This document shows, in pieces, positions 40,701-59,317 of a stretch of 64,000 bases of DNA (position 1 is the stretch's first letter; the number at the start of each line of letters is the position of its first letter). The stretch is from a virus, in IMG/VR virus record IMGVR_UViG_3300022843_000001, positions 64,001 through 128,000 of that record. The stretch is one strand, 5' to 3'. Under the pieces are notes generated by a model that was given only the letters and a program-made list of their open reading frames with translations, did no database searches and had not been told where the DNA came from. The translations under genes and the position numbers were made by a program.

Positions 40701-40790
40701 AATTTCTATACATGTATTATACCATAGTCGCGGCACAATGTCAATAACTAATTTCAGTTTAGTTAGAATTAGTTGTTATATTAATATAAC
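40701..40790 (-). promoter_or_regulatory. Early promoter cassette (promoter 40716-40744, palindrome 40775-40790), duplicate of 797-877
   Basis: 81-bp perfect identity. Confidence 0.92.
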
Positions 40791-43397: not shown

Positions 43398-45113
43398 TTA
43401 TTTTATGACACTAAAGTTACGAGACTTGACGAATTCTATCTTAGATCGAAACTTATCCGCGAGCATATCGCCTTTGTGAGATATGATAAAGGTGTTGCTT
43501 TCGGTGCCCAGAGTGTCCATTATCTTCATAAGGTTATCAACTGAGTCCTGATCAAGACTAGAGTCAAATGTTTCATCCAATATCAACAAGTTGGTGCTAG
43601 CGCTGTTCTTTAACTTCGCGATCTGTCGCCACGCAAATAACAAGGAAATATCAATCTTCATCTTCTCCCCTTCACTGAATGAGGAATAGCTGAAAGCATC
43701 TCTATATCTTGATCTGATGGTCTCGTTAAAGTTTTCATCGATGTTGAAGTCCACAAAGAAGTCAAGAATCTGTAAATACTTATTTACAATAATATTCATG
43801 ACAGGAAGATACTCTTTTATGATTTTTGTCTTTATGCCTGTGTCCTTCAACATCTCATTACAAGCATTAAAATACGTTTGCTCTTCATTAAGTTTAGATT
43901 TAGTTTCAACCATAATGTCTCTTTGATTTATAAGATCATTTAGATTTTCGGTTGCTACACCAATATCTCCATCCTGATTACTTAATTTAATGAGACCAGC
44001 ATTCTTATTATTGATAATACTATTCAGTCTTTTGATAACAGACATGTTATTTCGAATGGTCCCTTTATGATCATTCATTTTGTCCATCTCTTGCTGTAGT
44101 TCAGTCATGGCCAATTTGTTTGAATTTGAAGTATCTTCAAGAGTTGCCATTGCCTGTTGCAACTCTGTTGCTTTTGATTCACACGATCTGATATTATGAT
44201 TCTTGGTATTTTCCTCAATTTGAATACCACACGAAGGACAATGATCATTGTCCGTGTAGAACTTAGCATCCTTTACTATATCATTCATTTTTTGTTTGAA
44301 TTGTGCGGCGTATTCAACCAACTTAAGATTTTGATCGTTAGATTTATTCAATTCTTTTAATACCACATCAAACCTTGTATCGATCTCTGACTGTAAGTCG
44401 CTGTTGTGTTGATCATACTTAGTTATGTCTGCTGCAAGGCTTTCAACTTCTGTCTGTATACCAACCAAAGTGTTCTGATTAAGTACTGCTACTTTGTCTA
44501 TATGACCTTTCTGCATATCTATCTTGTCTTTAAGAAGATCGTTCTGATAGACAACTTCTTTTAGATGATCTTTATTCTTATTAAGTCGATCTTTCATGAT
44601 ACTATTCATTTTAGAAAATATGTTTATATCTAAAAGATCTTCTATTACTTCGCGCCGATGACCAGCAGGCAGCTGCATAAACGGAATAAAAGAACTAGAA
44701 CCTAAAACTACAATCTGATGAAACGATTTGTGGTTCATCTTAATTATGTTGAGTTCAAGAAACTTCTGATAATCCCTTGCTTTTGCATCTTGGTTGATTA
44801 ATGTATCATTCTGATATATTTCAAAACGAGCAGGCTTGATGCCTCGTATAATAAGAAAAGATTGCTTTCCTATATTAAATTCAACTTCCGCTACACAATT
44901 CTTTCCGTTAATAGAGTTTATCAGTTGTGGCTTTGTGATGTTTCTATGAGGTTTGCCAAATAGTGCAAATGACAAAGCATCTGTCATAGTAGACTTTCCA
45001 GAACCATTCTTGCCTACAACTAGTGTAGTTTGAGATCGATCAAGAGCAATCTCAGTAAAAGCATCGCCCGTACTGAGAAAGTTTTTATATCGAAGTTTAG
45101 TAAAGTGTATAAT
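43398..45113 (-). CDS. gp46: Recombination endonuclease ATPase subunit (Rad50-like); start extended to a probable AUU
   Basis: The in-frame extension IIHFTKLRYKNFLSTG...GKNGSGKST contains Walker A upstream of the first ATG; also SFSEGEK and LDETFDS. Confidence 0.93.
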   Translation of the reverse strand: MIHFTKLRYKNFLSTGDAFTEIALDRSQTTLVVGKNGSGKSTMTDALSFALFGKPHRNITKPQLINSINGKNCVAEVEFNIGKQSFLIIRGIKPARFEIYQNDTLINQDAKARDYQKFLELNIIKMNHKSFHQIVVLGSSSFIPFMQLPAGHRREVIEDLLDINIFSKMNSIMKDRLNKNKDHLKEVVYQNDLLKDKIDMQKGHIDKVAVLNQNTLVGIQTEVESLAADITKYDQHNSDLQSEIDTRFDVVLKELNKSNDQNLKLVEYAAQFKQKMNDIVKDAKFYTDNDHCPSCGIQIEENTKNHNIRSCESKATELQQAMATLEDTSNSNKLAMTELQQEMDKMNDHKGTIRNNMSVIKRLNSIINNKNAGLIKLSNQDGDIGVATENLNDLINQRDIMVETKSKLNEEQTYFNACNEMLKDTGIKTKIIKEYLPVMNIIVNKYLQILDFFVDFNIDENFNETIRSRYRDAFSYSSFSEGEKMKIDISLLFAWRQIAKLKNSASTNLLILDETFDSSLDQDSVDNLMKIMDTLGTESNTFIISHKGDMLADKFRSKIEFVKSRNFSVIK

Positions 45114-45151
45114 AGGTAGTACCCCAATTCATTATGTAATTTTGCATTAAG

Positions 45152-45748
45152 TTATTTCTCATACCAATTTCTCATCAGATTGTCTTTCCAAGGTAACATC
45201 CTTAAGTTATCTTTTTGAGACAATTCCTCAGCTGAAAGGCCGTTTTCAAATCCGAATTTAATCGTTATAATATGGTCCAGTTGGTATCCGCCATCAACAC
45301 CACATATAGTTCGGGGATGATCGTTCGGATTAATTTCCTCTTTGTACATTTCATATATTTTCTGTGTAAGTCGATGCACTCTACCTCCAAATTTTTTAAA
45401 TTCTGGCGTAGTGTCTTTGCTTTGAGCCTTACTGAATGACTCAGTCTGCGTATATGATCTATCAATATTTCGTACTTTAGTTAGATATTCCTCATTTATA
45501 TGCATACATGATCTAGAACAATATTTACGATTGCTAGATGGAACGACTAACATTAACACTCCACACTCCCCGCAAATTTTGTTATTTTTTGGCCCGTGTT
45601 TTGGTCCACTTCCAACTTGGCGCTTTGCACATATTTGATAATGCTTTAATAATCTGCTTACTGTAGGTCTAGATATATTAAAGTTCTTCATAATTTCATC
45701 ATAGGTATGGTCTTTAACCCATAATATATCTTCTTCTGATAAACGCAT
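45152..45748 (-). mobile_element. Free-standing HNH homing endonuclease
   Basis: CGVDGGYQLDHII...NLRMLPWKDN; Zn-like CGEC...CSRSC; late promoter at 45771-45778. Confidence 0.8.
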
Positions 45749-45773
45749 ATTAATCTCTTTTGTATGGAGTTAT

Positions 45774-45818
45774 TTATACATTTCCATTTTTCCATTTCAG
45801 TTTAGTAAAACTTATCAT
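45774..45818 (-). pseudogene. Stranded original 5' end of gp46
   Basis: MISFTKLKWKNGNV* parallels IIHFTKLRYKN; ATG lies 1 nt after the upstream stop. Confidence 0.7.
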
Positions 45819-45819
45819 A

Positions 45820-46314
45820 TTAGTGCTTCCAAGTTACCGCCTGATGACCTTTATGTTTAACCATCCAGTCTGCGCAGTAACTTGCAGCAAAAGCATCTGG
45901 TTTCGCCTTGGCTTTCATGCCAGTCATACCCATTACATAACCAGTCGCTTCGTTAATAACGATACTGGAGTTATGCTTTTTATTAGGGTTAATGTCAAGG
46001 TGGATTTCACATTCAAAGTTTTCTAATTCTTCTGCTAATTCCATATACAAACCAACGACCTTATACGACTCATTCATAAGACGCATTCTAGGTTTTGCTT
46101 TGTTTGGGTCATAATCCCGTTCAGTATCGCTGTAACCAAATACTCTACAACCATGGCGGCCGCTAAGATGAATTACCACCACGGTAGTATATCTGGCATA
46201 CCACGTATTGCCTTTCTTATACTTAACGGAGTCACAACCTAAATAGATCTTTGAGTCGTCCTCTACTGTGGTAAGGAATTCTTTAATTTCTTCAATTTCA
46301 ATCTGATTAAACAT
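45820..46314 (-). CDS. RNase H-like (DUF458-type) protein
   Basis: IYLGCDS, RYTTVVVIH, RMRLMNE, EIHLDIN, ASYCAD. Confidence 0.75.
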   Translation of the reverse strand: MFNQIEIEEIKEFLTTVEDDSKIYLGCDSVKYKKGNTWYARYTTVVVIHLSGRHGCRVFGYSDTERDYDPNKAKPRMRLMNESYKVVGLYMELAEELENFECEIHLDINPNKKHNSSIVINEATGYVMGMTGMKAKAKPDAFAASYCADWMVKHKGHQAVTWKH

Positions 46315-46317
46315 TAT

Positions 46318-47379
46318 TTAAACTACCTCTAAATTTAAAGCCTCAATGTAGACTTCTTGCATCAATTGCTTGATTCTTTCTTTATTCAAATCCGTTTCTA
46401 CATTCATCACGTAACCATCCAATAACTCCGTGGTATCTTCTACCGTAATGTTATTGTCTGAGGTGTTCATCCCTGCAAATTCATCGAACGATTCCGCGAT
46501 CTTTAGATCATGGACGCCCACATCATTAATCCTATCAACAAACTTATCAAAAGAGTAAGGGTCGGATTTATGTACAACCACGATCTTTATAAATTTGTCT
46601 GTGAACTTTTGCACATCAACTGTGCTATAGTCGGTGGTCTTATCATCATATATTATCTTCTCAAATAGAGTCACCGAATTATGTACTGGACTCATGATTC
46701 GAGTATCTGTATCAAATATATGGAAATACTTAGGATCATGAGCATCAGCCCATGTAAATTCAAGTTGTGACCCAAGATATGTTATATTGCCCTGAGAAGA
46801 CTTTGTATGAAAGTGCCCAGACCACACCTGTTCAAAGCGCTTGAATGCCTCCATACCCATACCATGCTGGTTTTTAATACCTTTCATCATATCAAAACCC
46901 ACCAACTCTAGGTGTGCTCCAAGAAAGTCTGCTTTACAGTTCTGCACAAAGTTCATGCTTTCTTTATAGTTATAGTTATTAATCCACGGCAACAGGGCAA
47001 TATTGCAACCGTCATAGTTCATAACCCGTGGCTCCATTACTATATTTATCTCGTTCATGTAATGACCTAGCAACTCTTTTAGTGAACAAAGATCGTTGTC
47101 ATTCTTATAAAAAACATCATGATTCCCAGGTATGATATCCATAGTGATACCAAACTTCTTTAGGTTGTCTAGAAAGTGCTTACGATTTTCGTGAAGTGCT
47201 TTAAAGTTTATAAACTTTCGGTGGTCGTAATAGTCACCCAGATGAATAATTGTAGTGATGCCATGTTTAACTAAATAAGGAAAAAACACATTCTCATAAA
47301 AGTCGGCCTGATACCTAATAAAGATCTCAGACGAGTTTCGTATACCACAATGAGTATCATTTAAAAATGCAATTTTCAT
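46318..47379 (-). CDS. gp47: Recombination endonuclease (Mre11-like)
   Basis: NDTHCG, HLGDYYD, PGNHD, GAHLE, SGHFH. Confidence 0.95.
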   Translation of the reverse strand: MKIAFLNDTHCGIRNSSEIFIRYQADFYENVFFPYLVKHGITTIIHLGDYYDHRKFINFKALHENRKHFLDNLKKFGITMDIIPGNHDVFYKNDNDLCSLKELLGHYMNEINIVMEPRVMNYDGCNIALLPWINNYNYKESMNFVQNCKADFLGAHLELVGFDMMKGIKNQHGMGMEAFKRFEQVWSGHFHTKSSQGNITYLGSQLEFTWADAHDPKYFHIFDTDTRIMSPVHNSVTLFEKIIYDDKTTDYSTVDVQKFTDKFIKIVVVHKSDPYSFDKFVDRINDVGVHDLKIAESFDEFAGMNTSDNNITVEDTTELLDGYVMNVETDLNKERIKQLMQEVYIEALNLEVV

Positions 47380-58136: not shown

Positions 58137-58664
58137 CTAGCTTGTTGAACTGGATTCCCAATATTGGATTTGTAATTCAACTGTAAATTCTTCAATTGTG
58201 TTTTCACTATCATAGTTAACATCGATAGCAGAAACATTTGAAGGCCAACATCCACGGATATTGTAAGTCTTAGTAACAACTCCTTCTTTGTTTAGTTGTT
58301 CAACAACCATATCAGCTGAATAATCGGTAGGATTGCTCAAACCTGTATTATTGTTATGTTGGTTGATACCATTCATCCATTGCTCAAACGAGTTACGAAC
58401 ACTCATCTCAACATCATTGATAACCGTCAAGGTCCAAGGTTCGAAAGTTCTATCGCCTGCAATTTGCAGTTGACGACCACGAAAAGGAATCATGATTGGT
58501 GCAATGATTGATGCTGGAAGTGAAGCACCTTTGATAAGGAAAGATGCAAGTTCGGGGTCACCGCCCGCATATCCTGGAAAGTTACAAGTAACTCGGAACA
58601 TATTAGCCCGAGCACCGCCACCTTTTAATTTCGACTTGAAGTCATCTACGCCTAAAGTTGCCAT
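58137..58664 (-). CDS. gp19: Tail tube protein
   Basis: GGARANMF, LPAS, FRGRQL.IAGDRTFEPWT, IEEFTVE. Confidence 0.96.
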   Translation of the reverse strand: MATLGVDDFKSKLKGGGARANMFRVTCNFPGYAGGDPELASFLIKGASLPASIIAPIMIPFRGRQLQIAGDRTFEPWTLTVINDVEMSVRNSFEQWMNGINQHNNNTGLSNPTDYSADMVVEQLNKEGVVTKTYNIRGCWPSNVSAIDVNYDSENTIEEFTVELQIQYWESSSTS

Positions 58665-59317
58665 TAATATATCTCTCCTATTTGAGTTTGTGTTGCAATG
58701 ATGTTACTCATAACTGATTTGATTTGTGTTTCGTTTATATTCATGTGTTTATTCCTATTCTCTTGCCAGGGTATAAATCTTAAGTTGTTTATATGACCTA
58801 ATAACTCGGGAGCAATATTATTATCAAAACCATATTTAATTGATATGATATGATCTAGTTGATAAGCCCCTTCTTGGCCACACAAACCTCGAGGTTTGTC
58901 ATAATTCTTCAAAGACGATAAGTCATTTAATCTTGTAACTCTCAGCACATTCGCATAATATGCTTTCTGGGCATCTTTGTTGGAATTCCAACGTGGATGA
59001 TTCGTCCCTTGCATATTAGGCATTATTCTGCCCTTATTAGCTCTACCAGCAACATTTCCCTTCATCTGAATGCTTTTGCGGCATGTGTAACAAGTATCAG
59101 TATTTCTACTATATCTTTGCGTATAAGTTTCTTCACATAGATCACATTTACATTCAACATCAACACACGAACCGCTCAGAAGTTCAGACACCAATACTTT
59201 AATTCTTGGTATGATTCCCCATCGCGGCGCTGGATTATCAAATGAATAACCCTTTGATTGCCAATATTTCATGTTACTGGATGAAATCTTCATTTCGATA
59301 TATTTCGTTATTATCAT
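58664..59317 (-). mobile_element. Free-standing HNH homing endonuclease between gp18 and gp19
   Basis: CKCDLC, CYTC, CGQEGAYQLDHIISI...NLRFIPWQEN; its 3' end carries the gp19 RBS. Confidence 0.8.

Follow-up and report, generated by a model that had tools for sequence, protein, structure and literature searches.

Gene 46 of a T4-like phage probably starts at an AUU codon supplied by an inserted HNH endonuclease cassette

Where does translation of gp46 begin in a phage whose gp46 reading frame contains no ATG, GTG or TTG ahead of its Walker A motif? This question is raised by the minus strand of a stretch of 64,000 nucleotides (nt), hereafter the window, which corresponds to bases 64001-128000 of the 198,785-base-pair (bp) IMG/VR virus record IMGVR_UViG_3300022843_000001, a record with direct terminal repeats. 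The phage is a T4-like myovirus assembled from many salt-lake metagenome runs of 2017-2018, and its gp46, a Rad50/SbcC-type ATPase, is at most 48% identical to the gp46 of any cultured phage. Our results suggest that a cassette carrying an HNH endonuclease gene was inserted after codon 11 of gp46 and that full-length gp46 is probably translated from the cassette's own AUU codon at 45113, by initiation directed by a Shine-Dalgarno (SD) sequence.

Structure of the gp46 locus

Read on the minus strand, the order is gp47, an RNaseH-like open reading frame (ORF), a 14-codon ORF, the motif TATAAATA, a 198-codon HNH ORF, two stop codons, GGGGT, ATT and gp46. The features are as follows, with those of the gp46 start and the cassette first and the upstream neighbors last.

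43398..45113 (-): gp46 (Rad50/SbcC-type ATPase), 571 codons, intact; SMC_N and AAA_23 domains, phrog_77 with E 7e-155
44985..44987 (-): first in-frame ATG, at residue 43, taken as the start by automatic gene callers with a product of 529 amino acids (aa); from the sequence and gene calls
44991..45014 (-): Walker A motif GKNGSGKS, residues 34-41, upstream of the first canonical start; from the sequence
45111..45113 (-): ATT, presumed gp46 initiation codon; from the codon alignment with 37 relatives and from nine other lineages with an isoleucine codon (ATT, ATC or ATA; ATH) at this position
45081..45113 (-): replacement copy of gp46 codons 1-11 (IIHFTKLRYKN), right end of the cassette; from nucleotide comparison
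45121..45125 (-): SD sequence GGGGU, 7 nt before the ATT; duplex with the anti-SD of -6.0 kcal/mol
45129..45134 (-): two in-frame stops closing the gp46 frame upstream, TAA 45134-45132 and TGA 45131-45129; from the sequence
45159..45191 (-): ten-codon remnant (LERQSDEKLV, then a stop) of a 52-58-codon ORF known from five related cassettes; from comparison
45152..45748 (-): free-standing HNH homing-endonuclease gene, 198 aa, with an N-terminal helix-turn-helix (HTH), a Cys4 zinc ribbon and a C-terminal HNH domain; from alignment and structural model
45771..45778 (-): TATAAATA, a late promoter box of the T4 type that forms the cassette's left end and overlaps the stop of the stub; from the sequence
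45774..45818 (-): stranded native 5' end of gp46 (the stub), ATG and 10 further codons (MISFTKLKWKN), then GNV and a stop; from position and similarity
45820..46314 (-): RNaseH-like ORF, 164 aa, between gp47 and gp46; PF04308 with E 4e-19, phrog_11311
46318..47379 (-): gp47 (Mre11-type nuclease subunit), upstream partner of gp46; Pfam Metallophos

After the two stops, the gp46 frame reads ATT GGG GTA CTA CCT ATT (45113-45111) ATA CAC TTT, translated as IGVLP-IIHFTKLRYKNFLSTG...GKNGSGKS, and the first ATG, GTG or TTG of this frame is the ATG at 44987-44985, after Walker A. This is the sole long ORF of the genome with a conserved domain ahead of its first canonical start. The stub, MISFTKLKWKNGNV followed by a stop, has its ATG at 45818-45816, 1 nt past the stop of the RNaseH-like ORF (45822-45820), and ends with the TAA at 45776-45774. 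A preliminary description of this locus, based on its letters, had reported the coordinates, the upstream TGA, the spacing of GGGGT, the position of Walker A and the first ATG; all of these were correct on re-reading. It had also described a late promoter overlapping the stop of the stranded fragment, and TATAAATA at 45778-45771 indeed covers this TAA.

Origin of the ATT codon

The letters at 45111-45113, on which that description depended, are ATT in Logan contigs of four runs from four studies, which span these positions with zero differing letters; three of these four runs carry no flag as a possible source. Among 15 billion predicted proteins, the sole near-identical gp46 is the 529-residue call that starts at the ATG at 44987 (P0123); it is recorded from 14 contigs, and we found no 571-residue sibling starting with M at more than 91% identity. 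An assembly slip is excluded as the origin of the ATT because the contigs of the four runs agree and the identical truncated call occurs on 14 contigs. More generally, only prior expectation would favor a sequencing or assembly error in place of an ATG. Against it stand the concordant contigs, the repeated truncated call and the ATH codons at the same position in nine other lineages, which together leave such an error with almost no probability.

Homology of the gp46 start

We collected 37 HNH-free loci from viral contigs, whose gp46 proteins are 40-81% identical to that of the window. In all 37, gp46 starts at the codon that aligns with the ATT (ATG in 31, TTG in five and GTG in one), and none of them presents an N-terminal extension of gp46. 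The two closest relatives, L001 and L002, lack the 198-codon HNH ORF, and their gp47 proteins are 85-86% identical to that of the window. In L001, gp46 directly follows gp47; in L002, it follows an RNaseH-like ORF 82% identical to that of the window, to which it is joined by TAA-ATG. Because the 14-codon ORF of the window is placed exactly where gp46 starts in L002, it represents the stranded native 5' end of gp46.

Three observations place the arrangement beyond chance: the upstream anti-SD pairing of the ATT and the position of a conserved domain ahead of the first canonical start, both unusual in this genome, and a scan of ~397,000 eleven-residue segments that covered all six frames. Besides the replacement copy itself, only two segments of the 198,785-bp genome matched the gp46 N-terminus (residues 2-11) at 7/10 or better, one of them being the stub. 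Matches of the replacement copy to segments of the form 'IIHV.KLR' elsewhere in the genome were rejected as gene copies, since these segments are early promoters (TTGACA-N17-TATAAT) and their peptide matches come from a repeated unit. The unit, which consists of ATTGACA, 17 nt, ATAATACA and then GAAATTGAGAAA, occurs at window position 40720 (-) and at G000:C1:56746 and 41967 (-).

At the nucleotide level, the replacement copy is identical to the stub at 23/33 positions, to the clade L007-L011 at 28/33 and to L001 and L002 at 21/33. The upstream DNA of the stub, of the replacement copy and of gp46 in L007-L010 showed mutual similarity no better than shuffles, and no 5' recombination tract was visible in the sliding identity of gp46 relative to L001 and L002. 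Gp46 is present as a single copy in the genome and is 81% identical to that of L001 over its full length. Its ATPase head domains retain ~100% amino acid identity to L001 at ~80% nucleotide identity, a pattern typical of purifying selection.

The endonuclease and its promoter

Pfam recognized only an N-terminal HTH in the 198-aa protein, and its HNH identity was not named by Pfam, NCBIfam or a PDB sequence profile. An alignment of 28 family sequences revealed invariant residues (C59, C62, C77, C81, QLDH159, N181 and N190). The AlphaFold model, with a predicted local distance difference test (pLDDT) score of 93, presents three modules; Foldseek with the whole three-domain model returned no match below E 0.001. 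Residues 112-198 of the model best match the HNH nucleases 4h9d (Z 6.2) and 5h0o (Z 5.0), followed by SciA, McrA and I-HmuI, and the protein weakly matches phrog_1271, an HNH endonuclease family. We accepted the assignment to HNH nucleases because the structural Z-scores, which are moderate, the invariant motif and the weak PHROG match together point to the same predicted function. Protein databases contain a variant of this HNH protein with 99% identity (P0001) as well as relatives at 53-55%.

The motif TATAAATA is located 22 nt before the ATG of the HNH gene. It is found 44 times on the coding strand, relative to ~20 expected copies, and 23 of these are within 60 nt upstream of the start of an ORF. 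By this distribution, the motif behaves as a probable T4-type late promoter in this genome.

Recurrence of the cassette in other phages

Scanning viral contigs with the HNH alignment revealed 179 relatives, of which 80 loci were fetched. A gp46 homologue was found directly downstream of the HNH match in 64 of the 80 loci, and gp47 was found upstream in 57. The gp46 proteins at these loci, which include jumbo-phage contigs, range from 52% down to 24% identity with that of the window. Because gp46 lies downstream in such a large part of the loci and at identities as low as 24%, this HNH family is specialized on the gp46 site.

In most of the loci whose junctions were read, we identified the same layout: a stub, the HNH ORF, a ribosome-binding site and a second copy of codons 1-11 that is continuous with gp46. 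The stubs consist of an ATG and ~10 gp46 codons and often overlap the stop of gp47 (ATGA). Stubs equivalent to that of the window are present in L050-L061 and in many other loci, and those of L052, L057 and L059 have decayed through stop codons. The putative late promoter turns out to be a conserved feature of the cassette, with TATAAATA located 6-8 nt past the stub in ten other loci (including L050, L052, L053, L056, L058 and L059), mainly those nearest the window.

The replacement copy starts with an ATH codon in ten lineages, i.e., in at least nine besides the window: ATT in the window, L053, L056 and L064, ATC in L050, L052, L058, L059 and L097, and ATA in L054. Since this layout recurs in at least nine other uncultured lineages, the ATT of the window belongs to the mobile element and does not represent a one-off mutation. 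For five of the ten (the window, L050, L052, L058 and L097), there is no in-frame ATG, GTG or TTG before Walker A, the first canonical codon being at residue 43 or 64 and Walker A at residue 34. All ten ATH lineages possess a strong SD 7-9 nt upstream, with duplex energies of -6.0 to -10.0 kcal/mol. Median energies are -9.0 kcal/mol for the ATH lineages, -3.05 for HNH-free loci and -5.6 for those cassette loci whose start is canonical; a Mann-Whitney test, which makes no correction for relatedness among the loci, gives p ~1e-4. Other genes of these contigs have ordinary starts: the gp47 start is canonical (ATG, TTG or GTG) in eight of the nine other ATH lineages, the aligned codon being ambiguous in L054, and the HNH genes of the ATH contigs all start canonically. 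The preliminary description had proposed that the HNH gene entered the 5' end of gp46, displaced the native start and brought a recoded replacement. These comparisons support this core of the proposal: the insertion follows codon 11 with the stub upstream, and the replacement start is ATH in the ten lineages versus ATG, TTG or GTG at the aligned codon in 37/37 HNH-free relatives.

The replacement copies retain the pattern I-[IL]-x-F-x-x-[VILC] across diverged DNA, and the residues at positions 2 and 4 (I/L and F) are encoded by different codons. Because the protein pattern is kept through different codons, the replacement codons appear to be translated. Scans of viral contigs with the exact patterns of the stub and of the replacement copy returned no match, and a degenerate stub pattern searched in metagenome contigs returned a single match, by chance, in a prolyl-tRNA synthetase gene.

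The stubs and replacement copies bear on whether the HNH gene resides in a self-splicing intron. Group I introns that harbor endonuclease genes are known from T4-like phages (PMC2988022), and a splice joining the ATG stub after its codon 11 to codon 12 would yield a perfect gp46 with a canonical start. Rfam, however, returned no intron match up to E 10 and no ribozyme core, and the insert comprises only ~25 + 38 nt (~63 nt) besides the HNH ORF. The in-frame stops in the stubs of L052, L057 and L059 preclude their use as an intact first exon, the replacement copy appears translated and C rather than G immediately precedes the 3' splice site that such a join would require. No RNA run is among the sequencing runs listed for the phage. 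The splicing alternative that the preliminary description had kept in view is thus unsupported by the Rfam search, the size of the insert and the stubs of the relatives, and we regard it as highly improbable.

It may also be asked whether gp46 is translated at all, or was silenced by the insertion with an ORF that has not yet decayed. The lack of a canonical start is consistent with silencing. Yet the ATH layout persists in an HNH clade at ~50% identity with a full-length, intact gp46 in each member, the strong SDs are conserved, the genome holds a single gp46 copy and the phage has been recovered from many salt-lake runs dating from 2017-2018. T4 gene 46 mutants undergo an arrest of DNA synthesis. 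We therefore consider silencing very unlikely.

Several variants of the cassette were observed. A 52-58-codon ORF is found in L050:3040-3198, L052:3046-3213, L058:2826-2993, L059:2827-2994 and L064:2314-2490. This conserved ORF opens, out of frame with HNH, at an ATG or GTG within the 'PW(K/Q)EN' codons of the HNH gene and overlaps the ~12-16 terminal HNH codons. Its end falls in the range from 5 nt upstream to 6 nt downstream of the first base of the ATH, and its last codons (K-R-R) form the SD. This ORF may encode a separate small protein or a frameshift extension of the HNH protein. At L097:2507-2773, only 88 codons of the HNH gene are left, yet the locus retains its stub, its SD and ATC as the gp46 start; it is a decaying cassette that still supplies this start. 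Distant clades (L074, L078, L081, L084, L091, L103, L110 and others, including jumbo-phage contigs) present an ATG one codon upstream of the native start, with an additional Thr, Ala or Ser codon at the position of the stub's ATG, and their HNH stop overlaps the new start.

Linkage between the start codon and the endonuclease

We compared the distribution of ATH starts on a tree of the HNH proteins and on a tree of gp46 built without its first 12 residues. On the HNH tree, the window and six other ATH loci group in a single clade (Shimodaira-Hasegawa-like approximate likelihood-ratio test, SH-aLRT, 97) with long internal branches and pairwise HNH identities of ~50%, and two more ATH loci belong to its sister group. 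On the gp46 tree, the nine ATH rows require nine changes, which does not improve on shuffled labels; here the sister of the window is the HNH-free L001 (97), and that of L058 is the HNH-free L013 (99). Because ATH clusters on the HNH tree and scatters on the gp46 tree, the ATH start appears to follow the phylogeny of the endonuclease rather than that of the host gene, as a heritable trait of one cassette clade. The HNH domain, the presence or absence of the gene at a fixed site (present in the window, absent from L001 and L002) and a phylogeny incongruent with that of gp46 are attributes of a free-standing homing endonuclease of the T4 Mob type. The trees fit either repeated gain of the cassette or its repeated loss, in which the stub would recombine with the replacement copy and leave gp46 with a clean ATG start; under either history, ATH and this HNH clade are linked.

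Translation initiation at the AUU codon

The gp46 gene thus has no canonical start before Walker A and carries, at the position where its homologues start, a near-cognate codon with an SD 7 nt upstream. The cassette consists of the late promoter, the HNH gene, a strong ribosome-binding site and replacement gp46 codons 1-11; the native ATG and its 11 codons, ahead of it, would be a dead stub. We propose that transcripts of the early and middle classes, made from upstream, read through the HNH gene into gp46, as we infer because no terminator was predicted. The TATAAATA of the cassette would add a late HNH-gp46 transcript, and no sigma-70-like promoter for gp46 was found inside the HNH gene. On these transcripts, the GGGGU located 7 nt upstream would position the 30S subunit at the AUU, and translation would start with the initiator transfer RNA (tRNA). 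The AUU would then be the codon actually used, presumably yielding useful amounts of gp46, with unusually strong SDs compensating for a weak AUU.

The sequence around the start is suited to such initiation. The duplex of GGGGU with the anti-SD is stronger than that of 86% of 195 long genes of the genome, and equally good upstream pairing is found for 4% of all ATT triplets on the same strand. Folding predictions indicate that the RNA around the gp46 start is essentially unstructured. AUU is an established bacterial start codon, e.g., in infC and pcnB (PMC5499595, PMC3592434).

Several points weigh against initiation at the AUU as a trait of the cassette. AUU is the weaker codon in E. coli reporters, in which its product is 4- to 8-fold below that of AUG (PMC5499595, PMC3592434), or 6-8 times below it (PMC3592434). 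The lower gp46 expression that the preliminary description had proposed may follow from this, but these loci pair the codon with unusually strong SDs. The SD of the window is the weakest among the ten ATH lineages, and a 4-bp hairpin of -3.8 kcal/mol could engage half of it. In the other five of the ten ATH lineages, a GTG or TTG at residues -12 to 7 is available as a possible start. The comparison loci of the cassette survey are all uncultured metagenomic contigs. Both trees were built with a quick method, and the gp46 tree offers four well-supported independent contrasts between loci with and without the HNH gene; all four agree (sign test p 0.125), so that the linkage of ATH to the endonuclease appears strong descriptively but short of statistical firmness.

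The AUU might instead be used mainly by ribosomes that finish an upstream ORF of the cassette, by termination-reinitiation, which would tie gp46 output to translation of the cassette. The conserved 52-58-codon ORF ends within a few bases of the ATH in five related cassettes. The HNH stop overlaps gp46 codons 2-3 in L053, is located 11-17 nt upstream in L054 and L097 and overlaps the gp46 ATG region in the canonical-start clades. Moreover, gp46 is joined to gp47 by an ATGA overlap in HNH-free relatives, and the AUU of infC lies 3 nt after the stop of thrS, with a gain of about two-fold from coupling (PMC3592434). In the window, however, the small ORF is reduced to 10 codons and ends 46 nt upstream, the HNH stop is 38 nt upstream, and the sole ORF that spans the start (21 codons, from ATG 45162 to TAA 45097) has no evident SD. 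The strong SDs kept in ten lineages also argue for direct binding of the 30S subunit. Coupling as the principal route is therefore a possibility to which we give roughly one chance in three at best; it is compatible with SD-directed initiation and may add to it. Because only a 10-codon remnant of the small ORF is left, direct SD-driven initiation would have to carry most of the load in the window.

A second candidate codon is the AUA that directly follows the AUU (45110-45108), 10 nt from the SD; its use would shorten the protein by one residue. In some in-vitro systems, AUA is a good start codon (PMC5499595), and ATA occupies the start position itself in L054. Nevertheless, all ten lineages have an SD spacing (7-9 nt) that suits the first codon, and it is this codon that aligns with the ATG of the relatives. 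The second codon, being CTT in L056, is excluded as a general start. Initiation at this AUA is unlikely.

Other routes into the gp46 frame were considered and rejected. A +1 frameshift at CUU-U from the 21-codon ORF starting at ATG 45162 would have its SD 15 nt off and no stop after the slippery codon, unlike prfB. Fusion of HNH and gp46 by frameshifting is impossible, as the HNH frame closes before the gp46 frame opens. An alternative genetic code with TGA as a sense codon does not help, since both TAA and TGA precede the gp46 frame. We also examined a hairpin masking the ribosome-binding site of the HNH gene on read-through but not on late transcripts; it can be drawn and is no better than shuffles (z -0.37).

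The phage possesses 21 tRNA genes. One of them, with the anticodon CAT, is located at G000:C1:139756-139830 (-), outside the window, and shows a U1-U72 mismatch atop the acceptor stem and two of the three initiator-type G-C pairs in the anticodon stem. It is a candidate initiator, elongator Met or Ile2 tRNA; an initiator role, if it has one, might be relevant to non-AUG starts.

The third base of the start codon

The third base of the start is T, C or A in the ten ATH lineages and never G, and it is the only consistent nucleotide difference between the replacement copies and the HNH-free alleles. In L056, the replacement copy equals its own stub at nine of residues 2-11, and its start is ATT. 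That the third base is the sole consistent difference provides one hint, and one only, toward a protective role.

We tentatively suggest, as a reading more likely wrong than right, that the non-AUG start is a self-immunity device of the cassette. A bipartite enzyme, with the HTH and zinc ribbon at one end and the HNH at the other, would bind near codons 11-12 and cut ~30 bp away at the start codon, whose final G must be present in every naive allele (ATG, GTG or TTG). The carrier could then protect its rebuilt gp46 only through AUH, which would still initiate behind a strong SD, and the stub would be safe, its ATG having been separated from the binding half-site by the insertion. It is plausible that the change of start codon destroys such a putative cleavage site. 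As a rule for the whole family, self-immunity is argued against by other clades that keep ATG, TTG or GTG at this position or have an ATG one codon upstream. Dosage control or enforced coupling, with gp46 made dependent on expression of the cassette, remains an alternative that might account for the same codon; embedded promoters favor the retention of T4 endonuclease genes in a parallel manner (PMC2988022). Neutral hitch-hiking of a tolerated variant likewise remains an alternative.

Comparison with known systems

We found no paper on an endonuclease at the 5' end of gp46 or on a non-AUG gp46 start. In its logic, the closest system is the MobA/gene 60 element of T4-like phages, in which an HNH homing endonuclease is associated with a 50-nt ribosomal bypass that was shown to protect against nicking by MobA (bioRxiv 10.1101/2022.08.31.505936, citing Bonocora et al. 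2011). There, too, the HNH gene interrupts an essential gene of DNA metabolism with neither intron nor intein; the element brings a replacement for the displaced host segment (there termed 'homR') together with an unusual translation signal, and occupies one fixed site in many phage clades beside near-identical insert-free relatives. The gp46 cassette matches this arrangement in that, past the HNH gene, the window and related loci carry an element-encoded replacement of codons 1-11. Unlike the gp46 cassette, the MobA element splits a topoisomerase into two working proteins and relies on ribosome hopping. Here an 11-codon dead stub would be left, the whole protein would be remade from the start of the cassette, and the oddity is a non-AUG codon; the gp46 frame is continuous from 45113 to 43398, with no coding gap to bypass. 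Protection, shown for the gene 60 bypass against MobA, is conjectural for the gp46 cassette.

In anatomy, the closest parallel, as a mirror image, is the set of fungal mitochondrial mobile ORFs (mORFs) that carry a replacement C-terminus, found in Allomyces atp6 and in Glomus atp6, atp9, cox2 and nad3 (PMC3630166). In both cases an endonuclease ORF travels with a foreign copy of the displaced gene end, and the native end is left as a diverged, unused duplicate. The cassette differs in affecting the 5' end, so that it must also supply a ribosome-binding site and a start codon, in residing in a phage rather than an organelle, and in encoding an HNH rather than a LAGLIDADG or GIY-YIG endonuclease.

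The Aeromonas phage Aeh1 arrangement nrdA-a / mobE / nrdA-b and other free-standing T-even endonucleases (PMC2988022) share with the cassette a free-standing HNH gene in a T4-like phage, in or beside a conserved gene, under late-promoter control and with rearranged expression signals of the neighbors. In contrast to the gp46 cassette, both nrdA halves of Aeh1 are needed and reassemble as proteins, and most seg and mob genes of T4 are strictly intergenic and leave canonical starts in place. With infC and pcnB, gp46 shares an AUU start with an SD at normal spacing, that of infC being also just past an upstream stop; the AUU of infC serves the autoregulation of initiation factor 3 in a cellular gene, whereas here AUU, AUC or AUA is found on a mobile element.

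If our reading is correct, the cassette represents a third way for a homing endonuclease to occupy an essential gene without an intron or intein, namely 5' amputation and a substitute with its own ribosome-binding site. It would also be a natural, replicated case of AUU, AUC and AUA starts kept over long divergence on a mobile element, which raises the question of whether non-AUG starts are selected for, and whether by nuclease immunity, Rad50:Mre11 dosage or forced coupling to a selfish gene. Should self-immunity prove true, gp46 would follow the gene 60 bypass as a second example of an essential gene driven into non-standard decoding by a homing endonuclease. For annotation, gene callers would cut 42 gp46 residues including Walker A in every such phage, and core-gene calls would be wrong wherever the cassette sits.

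Other insertions and paralogues

Searches of cultured phages gave little for the gp46 site. Megablast of the locus returned no match, tblastn with the HNH protein of the window and two of its relatives returned distant paralogues only, and no gp46-site cassette was found at a coverage of at least 80% in the cultured-phage collection. The window contains a second HNH paralogue of 217 aa between gp18 (tail sheath) and gp19 (tail tube), at 58664-59317 (-), with no gp19 stub beside it. Its cultured-phage relatives include coliphage ORFs labelled 19.1 (as in T6) and a gene of Sinorhizobium phage phiM12 that follows gp18 by annotation.

The gp47-gp46 junction is a general insertion hot spot, where unrelated ORFs of 77 to 269 codons are present in different relatives (L005, L007-L011, L016-L018, L020 and L025-L028). 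The inserts of L018 and L020 supply a new GGAGG and TTG for gp46. At L007:1440-1495, and likewise in L008-L011 and L034, only 6 nt separate the end of a perfect TTGACA-N17-TATAAT from the gp46 ATG, and these bases hold no SD; gp46 may be translated from a leaderless mRNA in this L007-L011/L034 clade. Finally, gp46 of Synechococcus phage ACG-2014d (L049, KJ019034.1 112100-113916) is annotated as two overlapping coding sequences, which points to a frameshift or sequencing error rather than an insertion.

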